Positions 13,997-57,333 of a stretch of DNA of 64,000 bases are shown here, one piece after another. Position numbers and translations under genes: made by a program. Source of the stretch: an uncultured Pirellulales bacterium (GTDB lineage Bacteria; Planctomycetota; Phycisphaerae; Sedimentisphaerales; SM23-30); contig CAYZXY010000011.1 of assembly GCA_964482555.1 (NCBI GenBank), forward strand, positions 984 through 64,983, given 5' to 3'. Each line of letters starts with the position of its first letter. Position 1 is the first letter of the stretch. The notes under the pieces were generated by a model. The model made no database searches. It saw only the letters and a list, made by a program, of their open reading frames with translations, and was not told the origin of the DNA.

Positions 13997-15052
13997 ATGA
14001 ATAGAGAGGAAAAAACCGGGAAGCATAAGTCTGAGGCGTACTGGGTGAATGTGTGGCGGCGAATTGTGCACAATCGACGGGGGATGCTGGGCTTGTGTTT
14101 TGTGCTGGGGATGGGGCTGGTTTCGCTGTTCAGTCCGCTGTTGGCGTCGGATCAGCCGATCGTCTGCCAGTATCAGGGGAAGTGGTATTTTCCGGCGGTG
14201 ATTGAGATTGTGCAGTCGCGCGGGCCGGGGCCGCATTGGATAGCGAAGCCGCGGCCGTTTAATCTGCCGCAATTTGACGCGAAAAAAGAGTTGGATCCAG
14301 ATGATTTTGCGATCTGGCCTTTGATACCGTACAGTGAATTTGAGCAGACAACGAATCTACTCTCGCCGCCGTCGGCGGAGCACTGGCTGGGGACGGATGA
14401 TCTGGGGCGTGATATTGCGGCGCGAATGGTGCATGGAACGACGGTGTCGATCAAGGTGGGAATTGTGTCGATGGGGATTGCGGCGTTGATCGGGATTGTG
14501 ATTGGCGGTGTGGCGGGATACTGGGGCGGCTGGGTCGATATGGTAGTCAGCCGGATAATTGAGATTGTGATTTGCTTTCCGGTGTTTTTCCTGATTCTGG
14601 CGATTATGGTCTGGCTGGAGCCGAATATTATTAATGTGATGGTGGTGATTGGTCTGACGCGCTGGACAGCGATTGCGCGATACACGCGGGGGGAGTTCAT
14701 GCGGATTAAAGAGCAGGATTATGTGCTGGCGGCCAGGGCGCTGGGTGTGAACCATACGCAGATCATGATCCGGCATATTTTGCCGAATTCGCTGGCGCCG
14801 GTGTTGGTGAGCATCACGTTTGGAATAGCCAACGCGGTGCTGATCGAGGCGGGGTTGAGTTGGCTGGGTTTCGGTGTGCAGCCGCCGAATCCTTCGTGGG
14901 GTAATATTTTGCGGACGGCTTATGATTCGCTGCGGGTCGCGCCGTATATGGTGTATCCGCCTTGTATAGCGATTTTTCTGGCGGTATTGTCGTATAATCT
15001 GGTTGGCGACGCCTTACGCGATGCGATTGATCCACGGCTAAGGAGTAATTGA
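13997..15052 (+). CDS. Peptide ABC transporter permease, OppC/AppC family (copy 2)
   Basis: '[11 protein letters not shown]', 'YVLAARALG', 'HILPN', '[11 protein letters not shown]'. Confidence 0.92.
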
Positions 15053-16065
15053 TGAGCCCAAACAATGTGTTGTTATCCGTACGGGATTTGAGTGTGTCGT
15101 TTCGAACCGAGGGCGGCGTGGTGCGCGCAGTGAATGGTTCGAGTTTCGATATCGAGAAAGGCAAGACGCTGGCGCTGGTGGGCGAGAGCGGTTGCGGCAA
15201 GAGCGTGACGGCGATGAGCGTGCTGCGGCTGATTCCGCAGCCGCCGGGTCAGATCGAGGAAGGACAGATTCTGTTTCGGGGGATGGAGCTGCTGGCGTTG
15301 AACGAGCGGCGGATGCGGGAGATTCGGGGGAATGAGATCGCGATGATTTTTCAGGAACCAATGACAAGCCTGAATCCGGTATATACGGTGGGGGACCAGA
15401 TTGTCGAGGCGATTGAGCTGCACCAGAACAAGAAGGGCTCGGCGGCACGGGCGCATGCGGTGGATATGCTGCGGTTGGTAGGGATCGCGGAGCCGGACCA
15501 GCGTGCGTGCGATTATCCGCACCAGATGTCAGGCGGTATGCGGCAGCGGGTGATGATCGCAATGGCCTTGAGCTGCGATCCGGCATTGTTGATTGCGGAT
15601 GAACCGACGACAGCTCTGGATGTGACGATCCAGGCGCAGATTCTGGATTTGATCAAGGACCTGCAGAAGCGGAACGAGATGAGCGTGCTGCTGATTACGC
15701 ACGATCTGGCGGTGGTGGCCGAGCATGCCGACGATGTGGTGGTGATGTACGCGTCGAAGATTATGGAGAAGGCGGAGGTGCGGACGATTTTTGAACGGCC
15801 GCTGCATCCCTATACGCAGGGGCTGCTGCGGTCGCTGCCGCGGCTGGAGTGCCGGACGGAGCGACTGGAGGTGATTCCGGGGACCGTGCCGAACCCGGCG
15901 AATTTCCCGTCGGGGTGCAAGTTTCATCCGCGGTGCCCGTATTGTCGGGCGGGGGATGAGAAGTGCCGGACAGTGGAGCCGGAACTGGAGGAGATCGAGC
16001 CGGGGCACTGGGTGGCGTGCTGGAAGGCACGGGAGATCCAGGAAAAATTACCACCAAGGCACTAA
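15052..16065 (+). CDS. oppD: Peptide ABC transporter ATPase, OppD/DppD
   Basis: Walker A 'GESGCGKS', 'MSGGMRQR', '[10 protein letters not shown]', C-terminal 'GCKFHPRC'. Confidence 0.93.
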
Positions 16066-16073
16066 GGAGATAT

Positions 16074-16274
16074 ATGAATCCCGCACCGATTTCTACAGAA
16101 GTCGATTTACTTGCATCTCCAATTATCGATGCAGTTTATCATGTACGTAGAAATTTGGGGCCTGAGTTATGGAAAAGAGTTTATGAAGTAGGTTTCTGTT
16201 ATGAATTAGAGAAAAGGAATTTGAATTACCTCAAATTAAGAACGGCATCAAGCGCCTGGGTGGTTAATCAATGA
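16074..16274 (+). pseudogene. Internally deleted GxxExxY-family gene remnant
   Basis: The N-terminus 'IIDAVYHVRRNLGPELWKRVYEVGFCYEL' resembles a decayed GPGLLESVY motif. The family-like C-terminus 'IKNGIKRL' (attaagaacggcatcaagcgcctg, ~16235-16258) is in a different frame. AT-rich relative to its neighbours. Confidence 0.7.
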
Positions 16275-17248
16275 CTATGGATAATCTTTTACGAATAGAG
16301 AATGTCAAGACGTATTTCCCCATCCGCAAGGGGTTGTTTTCCCGGGTGGTGGCGAATGTCAAGGCGGTGGACGGTGTGAGTTTCGATATTCCGCGCGGGC
16401 GGACGCTGGGGCTGGTGGGCGAGTCGGGCTCGGGCAAGACGACGCTGGGCCGGACGATTCTGCGGCTGATTCCGCCTACCGCCGGCAGCGTGTTGTTCGA
16501 GGACCGGGACATCTTCAAGCAGGGGGCCCGGCAACTGCGGCGGCTGCGGCGGGATATGCAGATCATTTTTCAGGATCCGTTCGGTTCGCTGAACCCGCGT
16601 ATGACGGTTGGTAACATCGTCGGGGAGGCCCTGACGGTACACGGCATCGCGCGGGGCGGTAAACGTCGGGAGATGGTGGCGGAGCTGCTGGAGCGATGCG
16701 GGTTGTCGCCGGAGTATATTCATCGCTATCCGCATGAATTTTCCGGCGGGCAGCGGCAGCGGGTCGGTATCGCCCGAGCGTTGGCGTTGAATCCCAAATT
16801 TATCGTCTGCGATGAGCCGGTCAGTGCGCTGGACGTCTCGATTCAATCGCAGATTATCAACCTCTTGCAGGATTTGCAGCAGGAGTTCGGGTTGACCTAT
16901 CTGTTCATCGCGCACAATCTGGCAGTGGTCAAACATATCAGCGATGAGGTGGCGGTTATGTATCTGGGCAAGGTAGTCGAAAAAGCCCCGGCAGAGAGAA
17001 TCTACATCGAGCCGAAACATCCTTATACCATGGCGTTGCTGTCGGCGATCCCCGAACCCGATCCTCACCGTCGTCGCGAGCGTATCCCGCTCAAGGGCGA
17101 AATGCCCAGCCCGATCAATCCGCCGTCAGGCTGCCCGTACCATCCGCGGTGCCACATGCGCATCGAACGGTGCAGTACGGAGGTCCCTCCACTGGAAGTC
17201 AAGGGCGGCGACCCGAATCATGTAGCGGCTTGCTGGGTAACGGATTAG
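16271..17248 (+). CDS. oppF: Peptide ABC transporter ATPase, OppF/DppF
   Basis: 'GESGSGKT', '[13 protein letters not shown]', 'CDEPVSALD', 'PKHPYT', 'GCPYHPRC'. Confidence 0.93.
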
Positions 17249-17457: not shown

Positions 17458-20400
17458 TTAAAAGTTATCAAGGGGCGGGAAGGCGTAGGGGCGGAATTTT
17501 TCCAGCAGGCCCTGTTCTTCGCTGAAGAAGAGGGCACGGTGGAAGCCGAGGCGGTTGGCCATGGGCGAATCGATCAACGTGCTGGAATCGGTAGCGCTCA
17601 TCTGGAAAAGGACGCGGTTGTCGAATTCACGCAGAGTGGAGCGTTCGAAGGTGCGTTCGAGTGAGGCGAGGGTGTCAGACCAGAGCAGGGTATGGATGCC
17701 GACGGCAGGGCCGTCGCGGAGGATTTCCGCGAAGAGCTTGTCGGTTTTCGGGGTGTTTTCTTCACTAAGGGATGCGAGGCCGAAATCGTCTTCGCTGCGG
17801 CGGAGCATGCGGTAGCGCTGGATACCGAAGATAAGCAGATAGGTGGTGGGGGCGTCATTGCCGGTGTGGGCATTCGTGCGTTGCTGCATATCCTGATGGA
17901 TTGCGCTAATCGTTTCTTCAGCATCCCGCCAGTCCACCATGGTGCAGTTGTTCGGGAGGGTCAGGGCCAGTTCGAGCAGTTTGCCGGCGGTGGGGGCGTC
18001 GGGGGCGCTGCCGTCAAGAATGAGGAAGCGGGTGGATTGCGGCGGATGGTGGGCGGCCAGGCTGACCAGAGCGGCGGCGAGAATGCCCAGGGCCGCTTCG
18101 TCGCGTTGTCCGATAATCATCAGATTGGCGCCGCTGAGGCTCTGGAATTTGACGCCGGTGGGTTCTTTGATGGCGACGGGTTCGCCGAGCCAGGCGGTGG
18201 CGGACTGGGGCGGTTTTTGCGGCGGATTGGCCCGAAGTTTCTGGAGCTGATGGTTTTGCGTAATGTCGGCGGGGATGTTGCCTTCAAAAACGATGGGGGG
18301 AGTGATTTCGAGGTTTTGTTGTCGGAGCAGTTCGTTGGCGCGGGCCAGGCAGCCGTCACGCTGAGCTTCGGAAAGCCAGGATATCTGGAAGGGGCTGTTG
18401 CCGACCACCATACCGCCGGCGTCGTTGTAGATGGCTTCGCCGGGCCGGTTGAGCAGGCGGGCGGCGGTGTTGTCGTCGTCGAGGATAATCTGCGAGTCGA
18501 TTTCGGAGCATTGGAGGGCGATGCGGATGGCCATCTGGCCGATGGTGCTGCGGGCGAGGTTGGAGGAACCGCCCAGGGTCTGCGAGCCGAGAATGACATG
18601 GATGCCGAAGGCCCGGCCCTGACGGACGAGTTGTTCCATATAGATGGCGGCGTCCTGCGAGAGTTTGTCGTCTTCGGTGAAGAATATCTGGAACTCATCG
18701 ACCAGCAGCAGGATACGCGGAAGTTTTTTGCCGGTGGTTTGGCGATAGGCGGCGATATCCTGTACGCCGGCCTGCCGGAAGAGGTTGCCGCGCTGGGTCA
18801 TGATGGCATCGAGACGCTGGAGGATGCTCAGGCCGAATTCGCGGTCGCTTTCGATGGCGATGGTACGGGCGTGGGGCAGGCGGTGCGTAACGTAGGTTTT
18901 GAACTCGACGCCTTTTTTGAAGTCGATGAGGTAGAGTTCGACCTCTTCGGGCGAGTACCACAGGGCCAGGTTGGTGATGATGACATGCAGCAGGGTGGAT
19001 TTGCCGGAGCCGGTTTTGCCCGCGAGCAGGCCGTGCTGGGCGACACCGTGGCCCATGACCAGCCGCTGCAGGCGATTGGCGCCGGTACGCCCGATGGGGA
19101 TGTTGATGTCTTTGGCGCTGCTGAGGGACCAGATTTCGTCGTCGTTGGGGGCGATGGTGGCGAAGGGGACTTCGACACGGGTGGTGTCTTTGGCGGCGTT
19201 GCCAACTTTGTGCATGATGGCGGTGAGGCGTTCTTCATCCGGGGGTGCGTCTTGAAGCAGTTCGAAACGGCGATAGACCTCATCCTGCCAGACGAAGCGG
19301 TTTTCCTCGTATTTCAAGTGGACGCTGCGGGCGGCGAGATCGTCGAGGTCGAGTTCGGGTGGCATATCTTGTCGGGCGTCGTAGGCGATGAGGGTATAGA
19401 CGCCGCAGCGGGGGCCGCTGTTGATAATGCTGCTGAGCTGGCGGACGGCATCCTCGTTGAAATGATGCGGGAAATCGGCGATGACCAGATAGCGATAGGG
19501 CTCGGCCAGTTCGCCGGCCCGACGGTTGTATTCCTCGATGGTCGAGAATTCGTTGCGGAGATATTTCTGGATGACGTTTTCCATGTGGTGGGTCAGGTCA
19601 GTGAGCTGCTGCTGAATCTGTGCGGCGTCGGTCCAGATACGCCCGCCGACCAGGGCTTCGACATAATCAGCGGCGTGCATGAAACCGGCGAAGTTTTCGC
19701 CCAGGCTGACCGGATCGAGTATGGTAAACTGCACGCGGCCGGGCGGAATAGTTGTGAAGAGCCGCAGGATGACGGCACGCAGCAGATAGATAGCTTGCTC
19801 GCGACCCTGGCGTCTGGTCTCCAGCAGCAGCGAACCGCGGTCCGTAAAGGATAAGATCGCGGGGACGGTCAGGGGTGTGTTTTGCGGGAAATCGGCCAGC
19901 TGCCGGGCTTCGTCGTCAAGGGCGCTCCAGTCGAGTTCAATACGGCCAAAGCGGTACTGCGGGTGGTTTTCGTAAGGCGGTTCCCAATGTTTCCAGGCGG
20001 GATCCTGCCAGTTGCAGAAGACATCGGGGGGCTGGGCGGCGTTGGCGTCCTGAAACTGTTTGAGTATATTGAGGCTTTGCTGCCAGCGTTCATGGAGGCG
20101 GGCGCGGGCGGATTCGTAACGGTCCTGCAGGTCGCGGGTTTTCCGGCTGGTTTTCTGGATGAGTTCCTGGTGTGCCTGTTCGCACTTGGTTTCAATGCGG
20201 TTGAGGGTTTCCTCGTGACCGGTTTGGGCATTCTGTAATTCTGTGTCGTATTCGCTTTTAATGCGATTGCAGGTCTGCTGAAATTGATCGTTGATCTTCT
20301 GTAACTCATCGTCCCGTTGACTAACGAGGTAGTGGTTGAGTTTTTCGAAGTGGGCGCGGGCCTTATTGATATCGGCGGCTTTGGTTTCGGTGACTTTTTC

Positions 20401-21366
20401 CAGTTGCTGCTGGAAATGGGCAAGTCCCATTTCGTTATATTGCTCCAAAGCGATCTTTGCGGCGGCTAAAGATTCTGTCATCGCTTGGTGGATATCGGTG
20501 GTCCGGGTGCGGGCTTTTATCCAGAGCAGCCGGCCGATACCGGCGGTGATGGCCAGGGTCGAGACGAAAGCGGCAATGCCGGCAGTGAGCGGAGGGATTT
20601 GCGTGATGACGTCAAGCCTGGTGAGCAGAAATGCGATGCCGGCAGCTGCGCCGCTGATGGTGAACAGCAGCAGGAATGGTATAAGACCGGCGAACAGACG
20701 GGCGATGCCGGAGTTGGCCAGGTCTTCAGAGAGCTCGTCCAGCCGCTGTTCCTGTTTTTTGAGGACGGCTTCGGGATTCGGCAGCGGTGTGACTTCGGGA
20801 GCTGGCGTTTCCGTTGTTTCGGGGGCGGGCTGGCGGTAATGACGGATGAGAGCCAGGGCCGTTTCGTAACGCTGGTCGAGTCGCCGGCGGCGGGCCGGGA
20901 TAGATGCGGCGAACTGCTGGCGCTGTTGTTTAAGCTTCTTGCGGGTGCCGTCGGCGACGGTTTCAGCGGTGAGGATATCGTATTCGCATTTTTGTCTGCC
21001 TTCCTGGTCGGCGGCATCAAAATTACTGGAAACGTCGCTGGTATCACGGTCTTTGTGTTTTTGCAGGTCATCGAGTTGATTTTCATAATGGCGGCGGATA
21101 CCGGCGACGGTTGCTTCGTACTGCTGTCTGGCGGCGGTTATGTTTTGCTCACCGGTTTGCTCGATTTCATGGCGGGCATCGGCCATTTCGTTGTCGATGG
21201 CTTTCTGGGCGATGGTGTAGTAGGATTCGACCTGAGCCTGGGCCGGGCCGGCGATTTCTTTGGTCAGCCGGTCGAATTCACGGAGGGCGATTTTCTGCAG
21301 AGCCGCATAATTGTCCGGCACTTGGGGAGCCGGTTCGTTTAGGTAAGTTTCCAGATAGTCTGTCAT
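17458..21366 (-). CDS. FtsK/SpoIIIE-family membrane ATPase, EccC/EssC-like (type VII secretion-like)
   Basis: N-terminal coiled coil, a TM hairpin, a second coiled coil, then RecA-like domains. Intact 'AGKTGSGKST', 'LIDFKKG', 'LLVDEFQ', 'GRAFGIHVILGSQ'. Adjacent to WXG100 genes; GGAGTGAGGA RBS. Confidence 0.88.
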   Translation of the reverse strand: MTDYLETYLNEPAPQVPDNYAALQKIALREFDRLTKEIAGPAQAQVESYYTIAQKAIDNEMADARHEIEQTGEQNITAARQQYEATVAGIRRHYENQLDDLQKHKDRDTSDVSSNFDAADQEGRQKCEYDILTAETVADGTRKKLKQQRQQFAASIPARRRRLDQRYETALALIRHYRQPAPETTETPAPEVTPLPNPEAVLKKQEQRLDELSEDLANSGIARLFAGLIPFLLLFTISGAAAGIAFLLTRLDVITQIPPLTAGIAAFVSTLAITAGIGRLLWIKARTRTTDIHQAMTESLAAAKIALEQYNEMGLAHFQQQLEKVTETKAADINKARAHFEKLNHYLVSQRDDELQKINDQFQQTCNRIKSEYDTELQNAQTGHEETLNRIETKCEQAHQELIQKTSRKTRDLQDRYESARARLHERWQQSLNILKQFQDANAAQPPDVFCNWQDPAWKHWEPPYENHPQYRFGRIELDWSALDDEARQLADFPQNTPLTVPAILSFTDRGSLLLETRRQGREQAIYLLRAVILRLFTTIPPGRVQFTILDPVSLGENFAGFMHAADYVEALVGGRIWTDAAQIQQQLTDLTHHMENVIQKYLRNEFSTIEEYNRRAGELAEPYRYLVIADFPHHFNEDAVRQLSSIINSGPRCGVYTLIAYDARQDMPPELDLDDLAARSVHLKYEENRFVWQDEVYRRFELLQDAPPDEERLTAIMHKVGNAAKDTTRVEVPFATIAPNDDEIWSLSSAKDINIPIGRTGANRLQRLVMGHGVAQHGLLAGKTGSGKSTLLHVIITNLALWYSPEEVELYLIDFKKGVEFKTYVTHRLPHARTIAIESDREFGLSILQRLDAIMTQRGNLFRQAGVQDIAAYRQTTGKKLPRILLLVDEFQIFFTEDDKLSQDAAIYMEQLVRQGRAFGIHVILGSQTLGGSSNLARSTIGQMAIRIALQCSEIDSQIILDDDNTAARLLNRPGEAIYNDAGGMVVGNSPFQISWLSEAQRDGCLARANELLRQQNLEITPPIVFEGNIPADITQNHQLQKLRANPPQKPPQSATAWLGEPVAIKEPTGVKFQSLSGANLMIIGQRDEAALGILAAALVSLAAHHPPQSTRFLILDGSAPDAPTAGKLLELALTLPNNCTMVDWRDAEETISAIHQDMQQRTNAHTGNDAPTTYLLIFGIQRYRMLRRSEDDFGLASLSEENTPKTDKLFAEILRDGPAVGIHTLLWSDTLASLERTFERSTLREFDNRVLFQMSATDSSTLIDSPMANRLGFHRALFFSEEQGLLEKFRPYAFPPLDNF

Positions 21367-21558
21367 ATCCTCACTCCAGGTCCGAGAATAAATAGCTGGG
21401 TAAGAGCTTCTATGATTAATCAGGATAATTATAATTATCGCTTATGTAAATTATAAAATATGTCAGGAGGGTATGTGGTTTTCGCCTGGGCCGGTCGTAA
21501 GTTAAGAGACGCCCTAAAGCATTCCATGGATTTGTATTATGGCAACTGGAGGACTTTA

Positions 21559-21719
21559 GGGCACCTCTAAAAATTCATTTTGGGCTGCAAGCGATCTTTT
21601 TTCCTTCTGGCCTTCGTCATGAAAAACCGTGAATATTCACCCATATGCCCGGTTTTGCATTTCTTGTCAGACGAAAAAAATCTTCGTTTTCGCCTCAAAA
21701 GCAATTATTAGAGGCACCC
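21559..21719. mobile_element. 161-bp MITE with IS-type terminal inverted repeats
   Basis: Left end GGGCACCTCTAAAAATT and right end AATTATTAGAGGCACCC are imperfect inverted repeats (3 mismatches in 17). TTTA flanks both sides (21555-58, 21720-23). No transposase. Confidence 0.75.
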
Positions 21720-21746
21720 TTTAGTGAAAACGGGCCGCAAGCGGTG

Positions 21747-21959
21747 TTACTGGCATTCACGGCGCAAGCGGTCGATAAGGGTGGCTATACGCTCCATGGC
21801 CTGGCTGGTCTTTTTGATTTCAGCTTGCAGGGGGAGGATGTAGTCATTTTCAAACTGCCGGCAGTTATCGTCCTTCCAGATGTTTTTCATTTCGTTCCAG
21901 TGCAGGTCCAGTTTTCTGGCGGCCTGGATCAGTTTCGCATGGCTGTCATCAATGCTCAT
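21747..21959 (-). CDS. Small WXG100-like helical hairpin protein (WKD variant)
   Basis: 70 aa, all-helical pattern with central 'IWKDDNCRQFE'. AGGAG RBS; sits between the FtsK and WXG100 genes. Confidence 0.7.
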   Translation of the reverse strand: MSIDDSHAKLIQAARKLDLHWNEMKNIWKDDNCRQFENDYILPLQAEIKKTSQAMERIATLIDRLRRECQ

Positions 21960-22104: not shown

Positions 22105-23148
22105 TTAATCTTCTGGCAGACAATTGACGTCGTCCGCATTGAAAACGGCTATAAGCCGGCCCTGTTCCAGGACGATCAGGAAGCCGGCGGGTAATTTTAA
22201 CAGGTCCATGAAATCGAGCCTGAGCGTCAGAATATCCTTGACAGTACAGGCCTGATAAGCGGCGTGTGTTGCTTTATCGGCGTCAGCGATAAACCAGCCG
22301 CTGTCGTTGGGGCTTGCAGTTGCGATGCGTTCCAGGTAAATCGTGCCGCCGGGTGCCGGGAGATCGGCCAGGATGATTTTGTAGCCCGGTGCGAGCGGCT
22401 GCCTGACGGCGGTCAGGCGATTTATGAGGTCACGGTCTTTATTGTCAAGGCGGACAAGACCGAGATCGGATTGCCGAAGGGCATCGAGAGTGATTTGCTG
22501 CCGCTGCGATACAGAAGGGGTTAACACCCGCAGATTGAGGAAACGGCTCAGCGGATCGCCGGTATCATCGGCAGGGGGTGCCTCAGGACCTTCCGGGGTG
22601 GTGGTGGAGACACTTTGGGATTCGTTGATGCCGGCGGTCGGATCGGCCGCCGCAGCGGGAGGGGCGACGATAAGGTATTGCTCAAGCGAACGCATCATGT
22701 TTTCCAGGCGGGCCAGGGCGTTGGGGATTTCCGAATCGATGAAACCGGCCAGCCCCTGCATCTGCCCCCGGCAGGTGAAGATTTCAGTTTCAAGTTGAGC
22801 CGTGTAGGTTTTGATGCGCTCGTTTTTCTGTTCAGCCTTCTGCAGCTGCCTTTCGGCCTGAGCGAGGGCTTTTTTTTCGTCGATATAGGAATACTGGCCG
22901 CCAATGGGTGATTGCTCGAGGTCTTGTTTGCGTTTGAGGTTCAAGCGGGCCTGTTCGTATTTCTCGCGGCGGAGCCGAAGCTGATTTTTCCAGTAGCGGG
23001 CCCGGTCCTGGGTCAGCCAGAGCGTCGCCTGCTGCATGTCGGCCATGGTTTCATCCAGGGCGGCCATGGCCGTGTCGGAGAAAACGGACAGCGTGTTTTT
23101 CAGCTCTTGGAGCTTTTCGATAGAATATATGCGGGCGTGATCAACCAT
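22105..23148 (-). CDS. Helical-bundle protein with C-terminal Imm33/DUF2185-like domain
   Basis: About 160-aa coiled-coil N-terminus, a Pro/Ala/Thr-rich linker, and a C-terminus 'YLER....NDSGWFI...ILTLRLDFMDLLKLPAG' resembling Imm33. Confidence 0.65.
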   Translation of the reverse strand: MVDHARIYSIEKLQELKNTLSVFSDTAMAALDETMADMQQATLWLTQDRARYWKNQLRLRREKYEQARLNLKRKQDLEQSPIGGQYSYIDEKKALAQAERQLQKAEQKNERIKTYTAQLETEIFTCRGQMQGLAGFIDSEIPNALARLENMMRSLEQYLIVAPPAAAADPTAGINESQSVSTTTPEGPEAPPADDTGDPLSRFLNLRVLTPSVSQRQQITLDALRQSDLGLVRLDNKDRDLINRLTAVRQPLAPGYKIILADLPAPGGTIYLERIATASPNDSGWFIADADKATHAAYQACTVKDILTLRLDFMDLLKLPAGFLIVLEQGRLIAVFNADDVNCLPED

Positions 23149-23273: not shown

Positions 23274-23546
23274 TTATCGCTGCTGGAGATATTCTTCGAT
23301 CAGGTGTGCTTTTTTGGTCAGGAACGACACGTGGCGGGTGGACGATTCCAAAAAGCGGCTCAGGGTTTTCATGGTTTGTTCAAATTCGGCGGAGAATTTG
23401 CGCTGTTCCTGATCCTGCCAGGTTTTTTCTAGATTACGCATTCGCTGATGCAGACCGTTGGTCAGGGTTTCCAGTTCGGTATTGAACCGGTGCAGGTCGC
23501 GGGCAAATCGTCTCAGTTCGGCCGGGTCAACATTGGCTTTACTCAT
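23274..23546 (-). CDS. WXG100-family protein (EsxA-like, WQD variant)
   Basis: 90 aa 'MSKANVDPAELRRFARDL...TWQDQEQRKFSAEF...IEEY'. Typical 'VDP.EL' start and central W-x-D; no signal peptide. Confidence 0.88.
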   Translation of the reverse strand: MSKANVDPAELRRFARDLHRFNTELETLTNGLHQRMRNLEKTWQDQEQRKFSAEFEQTMKTLSRFLESSTRHVSFLTKKAHLIEEYLQQR

Positions 23547-23770
23547 GTCCAGTTCCTGAAGCGAGGTAAAGGTATCAATTTTGAGAAAAACATTCCACAT
23601 TTATTTTATCATATCGCAATAAAAATGGCAAACAATTTGTATAACGATTCCAGAGAGGACAATATTGCGGCAATATTTTACAATCTATTGCATTAGCAGG
23701 AGTTAAAGGATAAAATATAGCAATAACCATTACATGCCATGATAGCAGTTATACGTTTCCGGAGCCAGCC

Positions 23771-24793
23771 TTGAAGTCAGATCAAACCCGTCTCCAGATT
23801 TTCTCCTCGCATGACGAATCCGTCGAGCAGCAGAACTCGTCTATTTTTGCATTTGACAGCAAGTGGTCAACAGAGCAGATCGATAATGTGCTGGGATGGG
23901 GGGCGTCGCTTATTATCCATGTTATCATCGTACTGACGTTGTTTTATTTGTCCTGGCCGGGCCGTCCTGTTTTGCCATCGGGGCCAGCAGAAGTCGGTCT
24001 GGTCATGGAGCCAACGGGTAATGAGGATGCTTTTAATTCGGCTTCCGAAGGCTTCGAGGCGATTAGAATAAATCCAGTGGATGTAGCTGAATCTTTGCCA
24101 GAAGTTGATCTGCAGATGGATGATATGACGCTGGAAATGACGCAGGCCATTCCGCAGGAGACTACGGAACAGGATGAGATGAATCCGGCTGATATGCCGG
24201 GGGAAGATTTTTCGCCGTTGGCGATGGGCGATCCGGAAGGATTGATGGTTGGCGGCGGCCGCGCTGTCGGCGGCACGGCCAGCTTTTTCGGTTTGCAGGT
24301 CAAGGGGCAGAAGTTTGTTTATGTCGTCGATTATTCCGGCAGTATGACGGGATTGAAACTGCAGCGGGCTAAACAGGAAATTGTACGTTCACTGTATTCT
24401 CTGGACAGCAACATGGAGTTCTTCATAATTTTTTATGATAATGGATATATGACCATGCCCGGCGACAAATTGATGCCGGCGACCGATATGAACAAACAGC
24501 GTTACGCGAATTGGCTGCTTGAAGTTCGTGGCGGGGGCGGGACCGATCCGACCGGAGCGATGATGAAAGCGTTATCGCTGGGCCCGGATGCCGTGTGGCT
24601 GCTTTCGGACGGCCGCTTTGATCCAGTGGTGTGCGACGTCATACAACGAGCCAACGCCGTGCGTAAAGTGCGCATTAATACCATTGCTTATCATGACGAC
24701 AGCAGCGAGCAGCAATTGCGTCTGATAGCCCAGCAGAGCCAGGGGCAGTTCCGGTTTGTCCCGGCGCCGGCAGGCTGGCGCGGCCGTAGATGA
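23771..24793 (+). CDS. Membrane-anchored VWA-domain protein
   Basis: TM 'SLIIHVIIVL' (TonB-anchor-like SxxxH), acidic linker, 'ASFFG', MIDAS 'VVDYSGSM', 'GGT', 'LLSDG'. Confidence 0.85.
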   Translation: MKSDQTRLQIFSSHDESVEQQNSSIFAFDSKWSTEQIDNVLGWGASLIIHVIIVLTLFYLSWPGRPVLPSGPAEVGLVMEPTGNEDAFNSASEGFEAIRINPVDVAESLPEVDLQMDDMTLEMTQAIPQETTEQDEMNPADMPGEDFSPLAMGDPEGLMVGGGRAVGGTASFFGLQVKGQKFVYVVDYSGSMTGLKLQRAKQEIVRSLYSLDSNMEFFIIFYDNGYMTMPGDKLMPATDMNKQRYANWLLEVRGGGGTDPTGAMMKALSLGPDAVWLLSDGRFDPVVCDVIQRANAVRKVRINTIAYHDDSSEQQLRLIAQQSQGQFRFVPAPAGWRGRR

Positions 24794-24839
24794 ATCGTTT
24801 GCAGAAAAAGAAATGAATACGTGTATCTGGAGTACTTTT

Positions 24840-25592
24840 ATGCGAAAGCTGATAATTCTGGGATTGGCGTCAGGCATTATTCTGGGAGGTATGTTTGCGG
24901 GTTATTCGCCCCTGAGGGGTCAGGAAGACGCGTTGCCGGAGACGGCAGCCGCGGCGGAGAGCCATGATATTTCGCTGTGGCAGGTGGTGCAATCAGGCGG
25001 CATGGTGGGATACCTGATTCTGGTGATGTCGCTGGCGGCGCTGGCACTGATTATACGGAACTTTATCACGCTGCAGCGGCGACGGCTGCTGCCGGACCCG
25101 CTGGAAGCAGAATTGGAGGAACTGCTGCAAAAGCATGAGTATGAGCAGGCCCGGCAGGTGTGCGGGGATAATCCTTCGTTTCTGGCGCATGTGATCGGTG
25201 CGGGCCTGACGCAGGTGGGCTCGATGTTTGGCTTTTTTGATATGCAGAACGCGATGCAGGAGACCAGTGAGCGGGAGATTTCCCGTTTGTATCGAAAACT
25301 GGAATATCTGGCGTTTATCGCCTCGACCGCGCCGATGCTGGGATTGCTGGGGACGGTGTTGGGTATGATCAAGGCATTTAATGAAATTTCGCTGTCTGAG
25401 GGGGCGGCGCAGCCGTCGCAGCTGGCGGGCGGTATATCCGAAGCGCTGGTGACAACGTGTCTGGGGCTGATTGTGGCGATTCCCACGATGTTTTTCGTTG
25501 CATTTTTCCGCAACCGGATCGATTCGACCGTTTCGGAGGCGGAGATAGTCGTCGAGAAATTAATGGGCCGCTTTCGCCGTCAGAGTGTGTAA
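24840..25592 (+). CDS. exbB: MotA/TolQ/ExbB proton channel protein
   Basis: 'APMLGLLGTVLGMIKAF', 'LAGGISEALVTTCLGLIVAIP'. Confidence 0.92.
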   Translation: MRKLIILGLASGIILGGMFAGYSPLRGQEDALPETAAAAESHDISLWQVVQSGGMVGYLILVMSLAALALIIRNFITLQRRRLLPDPLEAELEELLQKHEYEQARQVCGDNPSFLAHVIGAGLTQVGSMFGFFDMQNAMQETSEREISRLYRKLEYLAFIASTAPMLGLLGTVLGMIKAFNEISLSEGAAQPSQLAGGISEALVTTCLGLIVAIPTMFFVAFFRNRIDSTVSEAEIVVEKLMGRFRRQSV

Positions 25593-25635
25593 TAATCGCT
25601 CGTTTCTATTCGAATCTAAGACAGAGTGAAACATC

Positions 25636-26070
25636 ATGCGTTTACGAAAAACGTTTCATCGACCAGGATATCAGATCAACATTGCACCGCTGATTGATGT
25701 GGTGTTTCTGCTGATTGTGTTTTTTCTGGTCGTATCCCAGTTTACCCGTATCGAGGTTGAGCCGCTGGAATTACCACAGGCCCGGACGGAGACTAAGGAC
25801 ACATCTCCGGCGCCACGACCGGTTATTGTCAATATCGACCGGGACGGGATCATCATGGTTGCCGGCGTCACACATTCGGAAGGGTCGTTTGGGTACCTTT
25901 TGCAGGAGCATCTTGAAAGGTCAAATGCTGGTGATGTGTCGGTGCTGGTGCGGGCCGATCGCATGAGCGATTGGGGTGTCGTCCGGCAGGTGATGGCGCA
26001 ATGCGCCCGCAAAGGCATCTATCGTGTGAAGGTTGCCGCGTTGGAAGAAAAACCAGCTGCGGAAGAATAA
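25636..26070 (+). CDS. exbD: ExbD/TolR family protein
   Basis: 'INIAPLIDVVFLLIVFF', 'LPQA', 'VRAD'. Confidence 0.92.
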   Translation: MRLRKTFHRPGYQINIAPLIDVVFLLIVFFLVVSQFTRIEVEPLELPQARTETKDTSPAPRPVIVNIDRDGIIMVAGVTHSEGSFGYLLQEHLERSNAGDVSVLVRADRMSDWGVVRQVMAQCARKGIYRVKVAALEEKPAAEE

Positions 26071-26093
26071 ATGTGATACTGAGATAATGTAAG

Positions 26094-26519
26094 ATGTTAT
26101 TAACGAGACAGAAAAGAAAAACAATTCCGCCCGAATTGAATATGGCGGCCATGATTGATGTAGTGTTTCTGCTGTTGATATTTTTCATGTGCACCAGTTC
26201 TTTGCAGCATCCGGAGCGGAAACTGTTGGCATGGCTGCCGCAGTCGTCGCAGGCTTCGGAGCCGGTCAGCGATTTTGAACCTGTGGTTATTACGGTGACA
26301 GGCGGGCCCGGGGCGGCCGTACTTGAATGTGATGGTGTGCCCTGTACAGGTATAAGGGAACTGCGTCGGGAATTGCGGCTACGACGGCAGGTGGCCGATA
26401 TGCCGGTAATTATACGGGGCGATGAGGGCGTTCCTTTTGAACTGATGGTGGATGTAATGGATATTTGCTATGAGGAAGAATTTCAGCAGGTGGCATATGC
26501 CGTCCGCGTTTTTGAATAG
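26094..26519 (+). CDS. exbD: ExbD/TolR family protein (second copy)
   Basis: 'LNMAAMIDVVFLLLIFFM', 'IIRGDEGVPF'. Confidence 0.9.
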   Translation: MLLTRQKRKTIPPELNMAAMIDVVFLLLIFFMCTSSLQHPERKLLAWLPQSSQASEPVSDFEPVVITVTGGPGAAVLECDGVPCTGIRELRRELRLRRQVADMPVIIRGDEGVPFELMVDVMDICYEEEFQQVAYAVRVFE

Positions 26520-26524
26520 CTGTT

Positions 26525-29056
26525 ATGAGTTGTTTTCGTAATATATTGTGTAAAGCGTGGCGCCGGGGAAGCCGCTGGTTCATATTATTTTGCTGGGTGA
26601 TAGCGTTGGTGATATGCTGTTGTGGGGCGGATAATATTAAGACGGAGCAGACGCCCGATCAGCTCGAAGAAGCCATCTCCCGTCAGCTTGGCGAGGTATT
26701 AAACATGTCGGATTATGCTGCCGCCGAAAAGGCGGTCGCAGCCGTGAACCGGCAGATTGAGGAGGCGGAGCGTCTGGACGAACTTGCCGTTGCGTTTCTG
26801 CGGGCTCAGGTTATGCAGGTGCGCGGCCGTATTCGACTGGTGCACTGGCGGGAAGGTGAGCATCGGGAGAACGATCGTCGCCTGGCGTATGAGGATCTGA
26901 CGGCGGCGCGGGAAGGCATGCAGGCCGTGTGGGAACAGAGCGATGAAGAACTAAAGGTTCTGCGGGAAAAGTATCGTTCCAATGCCCCCAAACAAAGTCG
27001 TTGGCGCCAGCTGCAGAATTATCTCAGCCGTATTCATTATACGAAGGCCTGGATCGATTATTCGCTGGGATTGCTGATTCCAAAAGAACAGGCCCCGGAA
27101 AAACATTTCCGCAGGGCGATGAACACCTTCGAAACGTTTACCAGCGACGGCTATCAGCCGCATCCGGTGGTGGCGGACTGCTTTTTGGGCGTGGGGTTGT
27201 GTTTATATGAGCTGGGCGAGCATCAACGTATTCTGGAACTGCTGAATGTAAACAGGGTGACGCCGGATAATACGCCGGTGCGTATCTTCCGGCGGATGAC
27301 ACGGCTGCGGATCAAGGCCGCACAGGCGATTCCTTCTCATTTACACGTAATTAACGCGGCGCAACAGTATCTGGAGTCTTTGCCGGCGGAGAGCGGTATG
27401 TCGGCGGGGGATTTGCAACTGTCGTTGGCGTGGGCTAAGAGCATCAAGGTTTTTTTGAGTTCGTCAGTTCCTCAGGCATACCGTGAAAGTCTTTTTCATC
27501 AGCGCCGTCGGCTTATCATGATGGTGTATTCTTATGGTGATGCCTGGCGAGAGGCGCTGCTGCAAGAGCTGGAACCGATTGAAACACCAGATGTTCTGAC
27601 GGAGCTTTTACAAAGTCGTGTCCATTTTTCCCGGCAGGAGTATGTACCAGCTCTGAAGGCCGCTGTGAATTGTCTGGAACGGGGGGAAGGATCATTGCCG
27701 GCGGCGTATTTGCCGGATTTGTATTTTCTCCATGCGGCATCGAACTGGAATCTCCAGCATTGGCAAGCGGCATATATATCCGCGAGGGCCTTTGTCGTTA
27801 AGTTTCCCGACGACGACCGACGCGGTCGCATGGGATCCATTGTTTTGCAGGGCGGCTATCGGGCGTTGCAGGCGAATCAGGTTTCTGCGGATGAATTTCA
27901 AAACGCTTTGAGGGAAATGAAGGAATTTGCCTGGCCGGACGACATGAAAGATGCCATGACATGGTATGAAGCGAAAACGCTGCTGGACCGGAAGTTGTAT
28001 GAAAATGCCTTACAGGTTCTGGAAACCATTGAAAAGAGCTCTTTACAGTTTTCTTTAGCGTTGTATGGCTGTGCTCTCGCCCATTTTGAGCGGGCGGTCC
28101 TGCTGATTAAGCGGCATGGAGATGAAGCGGTCTACCGGGATCGGATTCTTTTGCATCTGAATGACACGATAACAAATCTGGAAACGTTTATCGCTCTGGG
28201 AGCGGAGACGGATTCGGAATCGCTTCGTCAGGGGATGTTGACGATCGGGTTGGCCGCGGCTCAGACCGCTCTGACTCTTGATCCGCCGGCGTATGAACCG
28301 GCTCAAAAGGCGGTGCACGTGCTCGAAACTGACTTATCCTCCGAGCAAGAGTTCGCCGGGCAGCGGCAGGCTCTCAAGCTGGCTGCATTTGCCCGGGAGG
28401 ATATTGAGGCGACCTGCGAAGCGATTATGGAAATCATCGAAGAGCGTGCGGATGAAGAACCATTCCTGCGGGCCCTGATAACGATAGCCAATATTTATGA
28501 GCAGGCCGTTCGTGAGGATGCCGGCGCTTTAGGTACATCAACCATGGAAAAGGTGAATCAGTGTCTGCTGGCTGTTTATGAATATCTGTCGGGCATCGAG
28601 AGAGTAAACCGGTTCAGTGAAGGGCTGGATGAGTATGCCCTGCGAAAGAGAACGGCCGATGTGATGATGCGGCTGGGCCAGTATGATTTTGCCGCTGCCC
28701 ATTATGAATGGCTTATGAAACAGTCCCGTCGAGGCGACACCGCCACCATCGAACGGGAACTGGCGCTGGCATATACTATGACGCAGGACTATAAAGCGTC
28801 GTTGACGTATTGGCGCCGTCTGACGCGCATTCGGCCCGGTGGATCTGCCGGCTGGTTCGAGGGGTATTACTATATGATTAAGGCATATCGGCATCTCGAT
28901 CAGCACGATAAGGCGGTTCAGTTGTTGAATTATGTCCGGCTTCGTTATCCGGATATCGAGAACGAAACATGGCGTGAGGCTTTTATGCGTCTGAGTGAGG
29001 AAATAATGATTGCACAGCCAGCTGAAACCGGTGACTCAAAGGAAGATAGACCATGA
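26525..29056 (+). CDS. Large exported TPR/alpha-solenoid protein
   Basis: Hydrophobic N-terminus with Cys, helical repeats, C-terminal 'GWFEGYYY...LRYPD'. Confidence 0.7.
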   Translation: MSCFRNILCKAWRRGSRWFILFCWVIALVICCCGADNIKTEQTPDQLEEAISRQLGEVLNMSDYAAAEKAVAAVNRQIEEAERLDELAVAFLRAQVMQVRGRIRLVHWREGEHRENDRRLAYEDLTAAREGMQAVWEQSDEELKVLREKYRSNAPKQSRWRQLQNYLSRIHYTKAWIDYSLGLLIPKEQAPEKHFRRAMNTFETFTSDGYQPHPVVADCFLGVGLCLYELGEHQRILELLNVNRVTPDNTPVRIFRRMTRLRIKAAQAIPSHLHVINAAQQYLESLPAESGMSAGDLQLSLAWAKSIKVFLSSSVPQAYRESLFHQRRRLIMMVYSYGDAWREALLQELEPIETPDVLTELLQSRVHFSRQEYVPALKAAVNCLERGEGSLPAAYLPDLYFLHAASNWNLQHWQAAYISARAFVVKFPDDDRRGRMGSIVLQGGYRALQANQVSADEFQNALREMKEFAWPDDMKDAMTWYEAKTLLDRKLYENALQVLETIEKSSLQFSLALYGCALAHFERAVLLIKRHGDEAVYRDRILLHLNDTITNLETFIALGAETDSESLRQGMLTIGLAAAQTALTLDPPAYEPAQKAVHVLETDLSSEQEFAGQRQALKLAAFAREDIEATCEAIMEIIEERADEEPFLRALITIANIYEQAVREDAGALGTSTMEKVNQCLLAVYEYLSGIERVNRFSEGLDEYALRKRTADVMMRLGQYDFAAAHYEWLMKQSRRGDTATIERELALAYTMTQDYKASLTYWRRLTRIRPGGSAGWFEGYYYMIKAYRHLDQHDKAVQLLNYVRLRYPDIENETWREAFMRLSEEIMIAQPAETGDSKEDRP

Positions 29057-31167
29057 CAGGCTGGTCTATATTTTTTCAGTTGCTGGGTCTTGCGGAATCC
29101 GAGGCGACGAACTATTATCGCCTGCTCGGTCTCCCGTCCCGCGATTGCCGGGCGGAACAGGTGGACCTGGCCTTTCATCAACGCCGTCAGCAATTACGGC
29201 AGGCGATTCCAGGAGCCAGCTTTCTGCCGTTGCTGGCCAGGTTTGAGAAGGAGTGTCTGGAGACTGCCGCTGCGGTGCTTAAAGATCCCGCCAGGAAGGC
29301 CGTTTATGACCGGCGATTGGAAGCTGTGCCGGTGATTTATTCCCCGCAAGAGATTCAGGCGATGCGGATGGCGGCGATTCGTATGGGACATCAGAAGGTG
29401 TCAGCCCGATTGCTGCCGGACGGGACCTTGCCGCTGGAGCATAAACTGCCGCTGGCGGCAGAATTAAGGCAGCTTGGCTTCTCGCCAGGGGATATTGAGG
29501 TGCTGTTTTCAGGCCTCAGTCGCCAAAGGACCGCCAGAGAGGAAGGGCCGCCGGCAACGGTGACTAAAGAAACAGGTTGGGATGATGCCGATGAGGATGT
29601 TGAAGGGGATAAGGCGAAACAGAAGGAGGTGGACGGTGTAGCCTTATCGAGTAAAAAGGGGACAGGTTTATCTCCGGGCCGTTTGATGAAATGGCTTTTA
29701 GGTACAAGCATTCCTCTTGCGTTTATGGCATTGTTTCTGATGTTTCTCCAGCATCTGGTCCGGCCGCCGGCACCGCAGCGGGATGCCACGGAGACGCCCA
29801 TTACCCGTCAGGAAGAACCGGAAGTGACCGCGCCGCCTGTCACGGCAGACGCGGCTCCGTCTGTCAGTAAGGTCAAACCTGTCGTGCCGCCTGCGAGCGA
29901 CGAAGTGGAGAAAACCGTACCGGATGAAGGGACTGATTTGTCGCCGCTGCTGGCCGGTTTGCGAGAAAGTTACACATTCAGCGACAATGCGGGTTATCTG
30001 CTGGCCGATCTGGCGTTGACGAATCTGGTGATGTATGAGCAGATCGTACGGCTGGTGTATGATGATCTGGTATTTACGGACGGGGCATCTCATATACTGG
30101 CAGCGAACAGCCGCAACGAACGGATGAGTCTGTTGTTCCGCGGGGATGAATTCTTGCCGCGGACCAGCTCAGAGCCGGCTTTGATTCTGGCCGAAGAAGT
30201 GAACTATTTTGAATCGCTCAAAGAAAAGCTGGAATCTAATGAAAAGGCTGTTGTTTATCAGGCAATCAAGGAACTGGAGATTGTCAACAACGATCAGGCC
30301 GTGTCCCTGCTGCTGGAAACCCTGAAGAATACGCAAACGCTACGGCTTTCGGTCAATACGCGTATTCTGCGCGCGATGGAAAGGATGGATCATCCCCGGG
30401 TACAGACCGACTTGATCAATCTGCTGGCCAATGCCCCGCCGGCCCTGATTCATCCGCTTACCCGGACGTTGGCACGGATGAACGGTTTCGATGAGAATCC
30501 TCCGCGTGATTTTGCGGGACTGCTGCCTTATCGGTACAATCTCAATCAACTCCAGGAATGCATCAGCTGGTGGCAGTATTACGAAATGCAGCGAATCCGG
30601 CAAACGTCTTATCCGCAGCCATCTGCAAGGCCGGGAAGACAGTCGCTGCTTTCGGTTCGTTCTCTGGCGTTTTCGGCCAGGTTGCTGCAGGATTCTGTCC
30701 GTACGCTGGAGCAGTTTTCGTGGGAGGGCCGCAATGCCGCGGCCGGCTTCTCCGTGTCCCCATATAATCCGGGCTCCACTGTCTCGGATCCCTACGAGGG
30801 GATGAAAGATGCGCTGAAACAGATGAATGACCATTTACTGCGACTGGCCCGGACGCACCCGCGATGCGGTGAATTTGCTGCGGCGATTGATATCATCGAA
30901 TGCGAATTGCGAAACCGTCGACTGATTGCGGATACGGTTTATAAGAGCATGGCCGGTGAACTGGACGGCATCAACCGGCTTCTTGTGGTTATTATCAGTC
31001 AGTTGAATGGTGATGATGCATATGCAGAAAAAGTTGATGCCCTGGGCAGGGAGTTTGCCCCGGGAGTTAACAAAGAATTTAACCTGACGGGAATTCGCCA
31101 GCGATGTTTTTACGGCTGCCGCTTGTGGGAACTGTTCGCAGGAATTCATGGAAACAATGGCCAATGA
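29053..31167 (+). CDS. Membrane protein with N-terminal J-domain-like region (no HPD) and HEAT-like repeats
   Basis: 'NYYRLLGL...AAAVLKDPARKAVYD' brackets a J-like fold; one TM, a Pro-rich linker and HEAT-like repeats. ATGA coupling on both sides. Confidence 0.6.
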   Translation: MTGWSIFFQLLGLAESEATNYYRLLGLPSRDCRAEQVDLAFHQRRQQLRQAIPGASFLPLLARFEKECLETAAAVLKDPARKAVYDRRLEAVPVIYSPQEIQAMRMAAIRMGHQKVSARLLPDGTLPLEHKLPLAAELRQLGFSPGDIEVLFSGLSRQRTAREEGPPATVTKETGWDDADEDVEGDKAKQKEVDGVALSSKKGTGLSPGRLMKWLLGTSIPLAFMALFLMFLQHLVRPPAPQRDATETPITRQEEPEVTAPPVTADAAPSVSKVKPVVPPASDEVEKTVPDEGTDLSPLLAGLRESYTFSDNAGYLLADLALTNLVMYEQIVRLVYDDLVFTDGASHILAANSRNERMSLLFRGDEFLPRTSSEPALILAEEVNYFESLKEKLESNEKAVVYQAIKELEIVNNDQAVSLLLETLKNTQTLRLSVNTRILRAMERMDHPRVQTDLINLLANAPPALIHPLTRTLARMNGFDENPPRDFAGLLPYRYNLNQLQECISWWQYYEMQRIRQTSYPQPSARPGRQSLLSVRSLAFSARLLQDSVRTLEQFSWEGRNAAAGFSVSPYNPGSTVSDPYEGMKDALKQMNDHLLRLARTHPRCGEFAAAIDIIECELRNRRLIADTVYKSMAGELDGINRLLVVIISQLNGDDAYAEKVDALGREFAPGVNKEFNLTGIRQRCFYGCRLWELFAGIHGNNGQ

Positions 31168-31859
31168 AAAACCTTATTATGAAAAACAGATATTATTTAA
31201 TCTGGGCATTTGTACTGGTAATGCTGATTCCTGAGATGTTTGGTGAATCCACGACCGAAACGTCCGGGTTGTCACTTGGGCGGCAACTGGAAGTCGACCC
31301 ATTCAACCTGCAACTTGTGGGCCGGCTCCGCCAACAGCGATTGCAGGAGCAGGAGCAGGACCGTTATGCCTTTGTTTCATTCCTTCGAGGCTTACGTGCC
31401 TGTCGACAGAACGAACCGGAGCTGGCCGTCAAATGGCTGGCCATCGCTCAGACCTCACCGCGAATCCGCCGCCTGCACAAGGCTTTTGTTTCCATCGAAC
31501 TGGATAAAATACTGACGATGGCCGGAGTAGCTGCCCGACAGGCGGAGTGCGCCAACTGCGGCGGACGGCATGAACTGGATTGCCCGCAATGCCGGGGTGT
31601 GGGCTGGTTTCAATGTCCGCGCTGCCGGGGGGCGGGAAAAGTCTTGCAGGCCGGTTCCGCCACGCCGCAGGATTGTCCAGTCTGTTATGGCAGCGGTATC
31701 GCGGAATGCTCCCGGTGCCGGAGCGCCGGCGTCATTGATTGTCCGGATTGTCAGCTCGTATGGCTTACGCCGCGACTTGACGAAGAAATCGATCAGTTAC
31801 TGACGCTGATAAGCTATCTGCCGTCGCTGGAGGCGATGGAATTTGCGCTCCAGCGTTGA
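31164..31859 (+). CDS. Exported protein with DnaJ-type CxxCxGxG zinc-finger repeats
   Basis: Signal peptide; CANCGG, CPQCRGVG, CPRCRGAG, CPVCYGSG, CSRCRSAG, CPDC. Confidence 0.75.
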   Translation: MKNLIMKNRYYLIWAFVLVMLIPEMFGESTTETSGLSLGRQLEVDPFNLQLVGRLRQQRLQEQEQDRYAFVSFLRGLRACRQNEPELAVKWLAIAQTSPRIRRLHKAFVSIELDKILTMAGVAARQAECANCGGRHELDCPQCRGVGWFQCPRCRGAGKVLQAGSATPQDCPVCYGSGIAECSRCRSAGVIDCPDCQLVWLTPRLDEEIDQLLTLISYLPSLEAMEFALQR

Positions 31860-49936: not shown

Positions 49937-49982
49937 TTTACGTCTTTGCGTTTACGGGTTAATGGGTTCATGGATTTTCAGG

Positions 49983-51950: not shown

Positions 51951-52074
51951 TTCTAGTTGTTCCTTCGTTTATTCTAACAGGCCCGAAGGGCGGATTTTGT
52001 ACAGCCCCGGGCAAAGCCATGAGTTAATGAATCGAAATCAGCGTATAAGCTTTGCAAGGGCGTTTTGCCTTTCT

Positions 52075-55000: not shown

Positions 55001-55458
55001 CCGCAATCATGGAGATAGGAAAGGCCTTTAGCGATTTCGCGGAGGAAAAACGCCGTTTTTTGCGGTCCCAGGCCGCTGGGAGCGTTATCGATCAGGTCAC
55101 GCAGTGAAGGACCGGCTACATATTCCATGATGACAAAGGGCCGCCCGTCCTGGTTGTACTTGACATCGAAGATCGTGACCAGATGGGGGTTCTTCAGATT
55201 CATGCACTGGGTGATGCCGCGCAGCTCGATCTGCTCGTAGTTCTGGATCGCTTTGAGCGCAACCTGCCTGCCGCCGTCGCTGACGGCGTAATAGACTTCA
55301 CCAAAACCACCGCGACCGGCAGCCCGATGAATCGTGTACCCTTCGAGGGGTTTGTCTCCATATTTATACCGAAAATTATGCATCCTGGATACCCTGTCCA
55401 TTATATCATATTCGTCCTGCTTTGCCAATTGCCCGGTACTCGATTTCGCCTTCAGCAT
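52075..55458 (-). CDS. Hanks-type Ser/Thr protein kinase with many TM segments and a TM2 (NINE) domain
   Basis: 'GRGGFGEVY', 'ALK', 'HRDIKPGN', 'DYG', 'GTVHYMAPE'; TM2 '[23 protein letters not shown]...VD'. AGGAGGT RBS before ATG 55458. Confidence 0.92.
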
Positions 55459-55610
55459 AATGTGTACCTCCTGCCCACTCAACCTTGTTTACCCGCAGGC
55501 GTTTACGCTTATTTTTCCTGTTTTGTGACGACAGCAATAATCAGGGTGTTGGCGTTACTTTGATTCTTCACTTCATTCTTTATTGACCATTCATTCAATA
55601 TTGTACCACA

Positions 55611-57227: not shown

Positions 57228-57290
57228 AAGACTCCTGTATAATACGCCAGAAATACCCGGTCATTTTCTGCCAGCGTGAAACAGCAGCAA

Positions 57291-57318: not shown

Positions 57319-57333
57319 TGATGTCAGAATGTT

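Follow-up and report, generated by a model that had tools for sequence, protein, structure and literature searches.

We consider, with moderate confidence, that the 347-aa protein encoded at 22105–23148 on the minus strand of the window (the whole 64,000-nucleotide stretch of DNA analyzed here) is a long-hairpin member of a conserved four-gene cassette, and that the Imm33-like domain at its C-terminus is an anciently fused, dispensable and fast-diverging accessory for protein binding, rather than swappable cargo or a cognate antidote. The cassette keeps its gene order, the hairpin gene is single-copy, its C-terminus occurs in two states, and its two domains have diverged together. As the domain is kept or absent, and almost never replaced, an accessory binding module of old standing is more likely than a slot for interchangeable antidotes.

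The initial annotation had proposed a helical N-terminus, a linker and a C-terminal 'DSGWFI...LLKLPAG' domain. This three-part layout is real: both motifs are present in the reading frame, and an AlphaFold2 model of the whole protein, built from a 13-sequence alignment, shows the following parts.

22666..23148, minus strand: long two-helix hairpin, residues 1–161 of the 347-aa protein (AlphaFold2 helices 3–79 and 89–161), a conserved single-copy subunit of the cassette
22558..22665, minus strand: disordered linker of Pro, Ala, Thr and acidic residues, residues 162–197 (pLDDT below 50 at 166–197)
22105..22557, minus strand: Imm33-like domain, residues 198–347 (PF24719, 32.7 bits; AlphaFold2 pLDDT 93)

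As the model has two N-terminal helices, this region is a single long hairpin and not a bundle of several helices. Past the linker, the model forms a compact alpha/beta domain, and residues 198–347 modelled in isolation also reached a pLDDT of 93 (pTM 0.88). Hydropathy analysis found no hydrophobic segment anywhere in the protein. Structure searches with the whole model returned generic coiled coils only (best E 0.013 with Foldseek, best Z 11 with VIA). The Foldseek comparison that had been suggested for the C-terminal domain gave no fold match in the PDB libraries searched (best E 0.06), nor did the search scored by Z (best Z 3.4), and a PDB sequence search gave nothing besides one chance match at E 1.1; these absent matches do not establish a new fold. 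Word-indexed homologue searches, which are insensitive to coiled-coil sequences, found five matches for the whole protein, none for the N-terminal domain and only self-matches for longer forms, and their results were kept out of arguments from absence.

The similarity to Imm33/DUF2185 that had been claimed for the C-terminal domain holds for one of the two related families. The Imm33-like profile PF24719 matched residues 239–335 as its core (E 7e-8, 32.7 bits against a cut-off of 27), and the isolated domain scored 35.2 bits against the same gathering cut-off, whereas Imm33/DUF2185 itself (PF09951) stayed below its cut-off of 25.4 bits (13.9 for the reading frame, 15.7 for the isolated domain). 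All 11 aligned C-terminal domains matched PF24719 at E ≤ 1, and the top ESM Atlas matches of residues 198–347 were Imm33-like clusters (scores 0.90–0.91). Another ESM Atlas cluster (433 members, 353-aa proteins, 64% with PF24719, mostly Planctomycetota) is treated as a lead only because its score was 0.84. Across 136 fused homologues, in which the median linker length is 38 aa, the domains have a median identity of 26%, and R274, D282-G284-W285, L317, P320 and G322 are 80–94% conserved. Fused forms also keep an N-terminal extension of about 40 aa ahead of the Pfam core, with L206, R207, P211 and R216. In the window's own genome (97% complete, assembled in 154 contigs), PF24719 matched only this reading frame.

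A type VII secretion-like context had likewise been proposed, and it is supported by the adjoining WXG100 and EccC/EssC-like genes. The parts of the cassette beside the hairpin gene are as follows.

23274..23546, minus strand: WXG100-family protein, 90 aa, in which W-x-D replaces W-x-G in the turn (PF06013, 39.2 bits against a cut-off of 27.3)
21747..21959, minus strand: WXG100-like small helical protein, 70 aa, with invariant W21, W28 and D30 (hhalign against a WXG100 alignment, 78%, E 1.8e-5)
17458..21366, minus strand: EccC/EssC-like FtsK/SpoIIIE ATPase, 1302 aa (PF01580, 122 bits)
23603..23631, minus strand: match to a sigma70-like promoter consensus at 10 of 12 positions with TG present, upstream of the WXG100 gene; not evidence of function

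In the loci examined, WXG100 gene, hairpin gene, gene for the 70-aa WXG-like protein and ATPase gene follow one another in this order. Both small flanking proteins, earlier put forward as candidate partners of the hairpin, are conserved in this adjacency, which supports them as candidates. The 90-aa protein is the sole above-cut-off WXG100 in its genome; it scored 37.2 bits with TIGR03930, under that model's cut-off of 44.85, and W-x-D is found in 22/22 aligned homologues. Its closest relatives in named records come from Planctomycetota, largely Phycisphaerae, which makes the host a planctomycete and probably a member of this class. For the 70-aa protein, the Pfam scan gave nothing above cut-off. 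Residues 1–60 of the hairpin align weakly to WXG100 residues 1–50 (hhalign 68%, control 9%), and the C-terminal half reached 14%. As a lead only, the hairpin may thus be an elongated WXG100 paralogue, with weak support from its N-terminal half and little from its C-terminal half.

The ATPase has two hydrophobic segments (about residues 216–283) and, in its 1302 aa, a single canonical Walker A motif (GxxxxGK[ST], 783–790) with a Walker B at 886–891; FtsK-like stretches lie both before and after this region. It matched TIGR03928, TIGR03924 and TIGR03925 at E 1e-35 to 1e-31, with 107–120 bits against cut-offs of 346–778, below equivalog level. Among the window's scanned ORFs, there were no matches to the other T7SSa or T7SSb membrane subunits (EccB/D/E, MycP, EsaA, EssA, EssB, EsaB).

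The cassette itself, here predicted from its genes, is already known. Footnote 6 to a table of Zhang et al (2012; PMC3482391) describes planctomycetes and other Gram-negative lineages in which solo WXG genes accompany a YueA-like ATPase. The window resembles this minimal module in its planctomycete host, in having a WXG100 gene beside an EccC/EssC-like ATPase gene, and in the lack of linked toxins; the module is described there as having only the middle ATPase domain catalytically intact, with which the window's ATPase agrees at the motif level. The long hairpin, the 70-aa paralogue and the Imm33-like fusion differ in that the passages of Zhang et al on this module do not mention them. We found no description of the fusion of an Imm33-like domain to the hairpin in the open-access literature searched. 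By description, the cassette can also be likened to HP0062 of Helicobacter pylori, a Gram-negative WXG100-like hairpin with WRD (W-x-D) in its bend that is clustered with FtsK/SpoIIIE and whose function is given as not known (PMC3397514); the parts of that report covering HP0062 differ in mentioning no Imm33-like fusion.

The hairpin gene was present in 75 of the best 80 WXG100 loci (out of 540 confirmed). It is single-copy wherever found, in 21 of 61 relatives, in 57 of 401 phylum genomes (one match each) and in 130 of 401 class genomes, two of which show it in fragments; the class tally takes in the unpublished genome G690, on which no claim rests. Genes flanking the cassette are unrelated housekeeping genes that vary from locus to locus. 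In several genomes of family f15, the cassette appears to be split, as the hairpin gene has no close downstream ATPase gene and sometimes no upstream WXG100 gene in the fetched flank (L033/L067, L036, L037, L040, L043, L045, L047, L048, L051, L052, L054).

Several other features of the window were observed around the cassette. A 170-bp element with terminal inverted repeats (21554–21723), likely a MITE, with 50 further copies in the genome (≥140 nt, ≥85% identity), separates the 70-aa gene from the ATPase gene, and a promoter-like match (21457–21428, minus strand) is located between this element and the ATPase start. A divergent operon at 23771–31859 (plus strand) encodes a vWA protein, an ExbB/MotA protein, two ExbD proteins, an 843-aa TPR-like protein, a 704-aa protein and a Cys-rich zinc-finger-like protein; it is not kept beside the cassette in relatives. 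Further away, 49031–58185 (minus strand) encodes an ECF-type sigma factor, a Ser/Thr kinase with a TM2 domain and several proteins without a Pfam match at E ≤ 1e-8.

The initial annotation had gone further and suggested that the C-terminus may be a polymorphic cargo slot, comparable to that of LXG toxins and occupied here by an immunity-like domain. Homologues of the N-terminus were therefore collected and their C-termini compared, and they carried the same domain or a low-complexity tail. Among 21 relatives, 10 hairpins are fused to the same domain, 10 are unfused with a short acidic tail and one is broken. In the best 150 of 2601 library representatives, a sample biased to close relatives, the domain is present in 83 and missing from 67, one of the latter being a truncated form. 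When all sources were pooled at 95% identity, 143 of the 310 non-redundant hairpins had the Imm33-like domain (seven of them partial) and 167 lacked it, with a toxin domain at this position in 0/310. The unfused tails consist largely of Ala, Pro, Glu, Gly and Asp and are at most 100 aa long in 162 of the 167; the long or odd exceptions are two long low-complexity tails and those of P0071, L190 and L155.

Other folded cargo is suggested in at most two of the 310 hairpins. First, L155:771-1634, unlike every other hairpin, ends in a clearly distinct C-terminal tail of about 65 aa that looks structured and has no Pfam match. Second, P0100 has a truncated start of an Imm33-like domain followed by a phosphodiesterase, and it may be a chimera. 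Further candidates were rejected: the tail of P0071 lacks a Pfam match and resembles off-frame sequence, that of L190 is a read-through into the small gene, and an apparent stand-alone C-terminal domain near the cassette in L064 is an off-frame match overlapping a large repeat-protein gene. Long open frames of hairpins in the phylum and class samples were mostly upstream extensions. A profile of the fused domain matched 56 of 401 class genomes (55 of the 56 within the hairpin reading frame), and in this class sample the domain is retained across at least 10 family codes. We found no downstream cassette of alternative C-termini and no recombination-promoting repeats around the domain. A polymorphic slot could draw on L155 and P0100 as possible alternative C-termini and on the 2451 library matches that lie outside the best 150. 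Set against these are the absence of toxin domains from all 310 proteins, the single-copy gene, the lack of alternative C-termini downstream and the co-divergence of the two domains described below, so that this reading is largely refuted in the sample and, in our estimate, highly improbable overall.

Among the 136 fused proteins, pairs with more similar N-terminal domains also tend to have more similar C-terminal domains (Mantel r 0.46; the highest of 999 permutations gave 0.13). The six closest pairs without saturation had dS values of 0.39–1.0 for the C-terminal domain and 0.30–1.35 for the N-terminal domain; as these values are similar, there is no sign of swapping. Amino-acid change in close pairs is several times faster in the C-terminal domain: in the five closest unsaturated pairs, where N-terminal domains are 90–94% identical, C-terminal domains are 63–79% identical in four and 43% in the fifth. 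The dN/dS of the C-terminal domain is about 0.2–0.45 in the closest pairs, close to the linker value, and below 1 in 24 of 24 pairs. The domain is thus under purifying but relaxed selection, and its fast change could equally reflect an arms-race immunity role or slow decay.

One rival reading is a near-neutral passenger, an immunity gene fused by chance long ago, weakly constrained (mostly for folding) and lost upon truncation. The frequent absence of the domain in close kin, the seven partial forms and the linker-like dN/dS are in line with this. We nonetheless give it little credence, considering the retention across family codes, the 80–94% conservation of the seven core residues in 136 domains and the consistently sub-unity dN/dS.

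Regarding the origin of the fusion, a tree of 41 fused C-terminal domains (the window's and 40 random ones) and 20 other Imm33-family sequences over 110 columns did not reject one origin (p-AU 0.72; the constrained tree had the higher likelihood). The free tree is poorly resolved, and two canonical immunity proteins nest within the fused group. On the hairpin tree, at least 61 changes between fused and unfused states are needed (102 when shuffled), 14 of them forced by strong branches; these counts do not separate loss from repeated gain. Outside the class, 0/27 sampled phylum hairpins are fused (median tail 9 aa), so the cassette is kept there without the domain; in records labelled Planctomycetia, the fusion is present in 3 of 17 distinct hairpins. 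A linker motif, defined post hoc after inspection of the data, was present in 71/143 fused, 65/123 long-tail unfused and 1/44 short-tail hairpins (shuffled mean 4.8, maximum 12). As it is common to the fused and long-tail unfused forms and not to the short-tail ones, the motif fits loss by truncation. One old gain followed by many truncations is the simplest reading, compared with repeated gains.

The earlier observation that no toxin lies nearby was upheld. None of the 46 window ORFs scanned with Pfam (10 at E ≤ 1 and 36 at E ≤ 1e-8, the three ABC-transporter ORFs at 13997–17245 lying outside the scan) matched polymorphic-toxin, RHS or immunity families, and neither did any of 117 ORFs flanking 27 fused loci at the strict threshold of E ≤ 1e-12 and with short downstream flanks; these flanks did contain one type IV toxin-antitoxin pair, which is unrelated. 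The fused gene has the WXG100 and 70-aa genes as neighbors, and not the preceding toxin gene or polyimmunity locus expected of an immunity gene. No relatives of three toxins with an NGO1392-like pattern were found in the 97%-complete genome (best tblastn E 0.21). This genome also has two RHS cores, one above cut-off and one below (G000:C74:14937-15140 and C96:10205-10273; L090, L091), and the core on C74 is cut off by the end of its contig ahead of any toxin domain.

Family members elsewhere do occupy such positions. In two planctomycete genomes, canonical 118-aa Imm33-like genes lie directly 3' of RHS toxins (L079:1477-2833 and L249:1474-3304), and the family therefore includes immunity-context genes. 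These toxin ends carry CxxC-DH-CxxC-Q, by which Zhang et al characterize the NGO1392-like HNH toxins (PMC3482391). At L080:2-1419, an HNH-like toxin is followed by two Imm33-family genes, and these three loci offer candidate toxin-immunity pairs. Other planctomycetes have a longer Imm33-like form with an unnamed 90–100-aa domain ahead of the Imm33-like part, with no Pfam match in those scanned; it stands alone or is fused to a Cys-rich N-terminus (L250, L256, L259, L260, L266) or TPR repeats (L255, L258), with further examples in L167, L252, L253, L261 and L263. The window's domain is 13–29% identical to these longer forms, and 14–16% identical to the two toxin-adjacent 118-aa proteins.

These family members bear on whether the fused domain could be an orphan immunity protein, which would neutralize competitors' nuclease toxins of the HNH/EndoVII fold in the cytoplasm, with the hairpin as a steadily expressed carrier. 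In the passages of Zhang et al on the family, Imm33 is listed with Tox-HNH, Tox-DHNNK and NGO1392-like HNH toxins and as a component of toxin-free polyimmunity proteins (PMC3482391), and the placement of the canonical genes in L079 and L249 and the quick evolution of the domain point the same way. However, the window's domain is 14–21% identical to canonical proteins, occurs as one copy, with neither paralogues in tandem nor arrays of immunity genes in the scanned flanks, and has long co-diverged with a structural subunit. In addition, PA2504 of Pseudomonas aeruginosa (DUF2314-DUF2185), the one studied DUF2185 protein that our literature search found, is proposed as a likely tether of cellular proteins in the part of the report that concerns it (PMC8466066). 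Considering both sides, we regard orphan immunity as possible but unlikely. PA2504 is alike in that its DUF2185 domain is reported there without a structural match, as is the case for the window's domain; it differs in belonging to the PF09951 family, in its fusion partner and in having no T7SS-like context. Compared with predicted Imm33/DUF2185 (PF09951) and Imm33-like (PF24719) immunity domains in general, the window's domain shares the DSGW and LPxG core and scores above the PF24719 cut-off, and it differs in its toxin-free location and its extra conserved 40-aa N-terminal extension. Its partner differs as well: Zhang et al name SUKH, SuFu, Imm13 and Imm34 as partners of Imm33 in the passages on these proteins, and here the partner is a secretion-type hairpin (PMC3482391).

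We also compared the protein with the LXG-Lap heterotrimer TelA-LapA3-LapA4 of T7SSb, described in the sections of that report on the complex (PMC10801868). Both combine a helical N-domain with a C-terminal globular domain and two small WXG100-like neighbors, and for the window these two adjacent genes are conserved. The LXG domain of TelA was solved there with nine helices and has a functional LxG motif, whereas the window's hairpin has two helices and no PF04740 match, is single-copy and non-polymorphic, and is associated with neither a toxin nor a downstream immunity gene. The LXG profile PF04740 matched 2 of 36 hairpins at E ≤ 0.1 (best 0.042), none at E < 0.04 and not the window's protein, and it had no matches in the window's own genome. 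The small proteins of the cassette have no WxG and no Y/FxxxD/E in their last 25 residues (0/22 and 0/27). Thus, the LXG analogy that had been drawn survives as a loose resemblance, and sequence comparison does not support the hairpin as an LXG domain. It may still work like a carrier, as it is helical, has a flexibly attached domain, lies between two WXG100-like genes and is accompanied by an EccC-like ATPase.

This resemblance to LXG-Lap complexes, in which a helical carrier, a linker and a C-terminal domain stand beside two small partners, speaks in favor of an exported antidote or decoy, in which the ATPase would send the hairpin bundle with its fixed, fast-evolving domain to the periplasm or surface, and toxins would be intercepted there before entry. 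As the protein has no hydrophobic segment, export would need a non-Sec route. The small proteins nevertheless lack both motifs, the LXG profile is unmatched, more than half of the sampled cassettes do without the cargo, and the literature we found shows no export for the cassette; we therefore view such a decoy outside the cytoplasm as quite improbable.

For the preferred reading, an anciently fused accessory binding module, a working model can be proposed. By analogy with WXG100, Lap and PE-PPE biology, the hairpin would bundle with the 90-aa and 70-aa proteins, and the membrane-anchored ATPase would engage this bundle and probably move it across the inner membrane. The Imm33-like domain was probably gained once, in or near the ancestor of Phycisphaerae, and then repeatedly lost by truncation, which would often have left the linker as an acidic tail. 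Where retained, it most likely tethers or caps a putative protein partner of the bundle through its R274, DSGW and LPxG core.

For more than a decade, the minimal WXG100/EccC-like cassette has been on record in Gram-negative lineages without a known substrate or function. About 46% of the sampled cassette copies carry a natural folded passenger on their own subunit, which offers a handle for testing both export by the cassette and its tolerance of folded cargo. Were the domain an exported decoy after all, a diderm bacterium would be using a type VII-like system to deliver protection and not attack. The fusion also provides a conserved, toxin-free context for learning what the Imm33-like domain binds.
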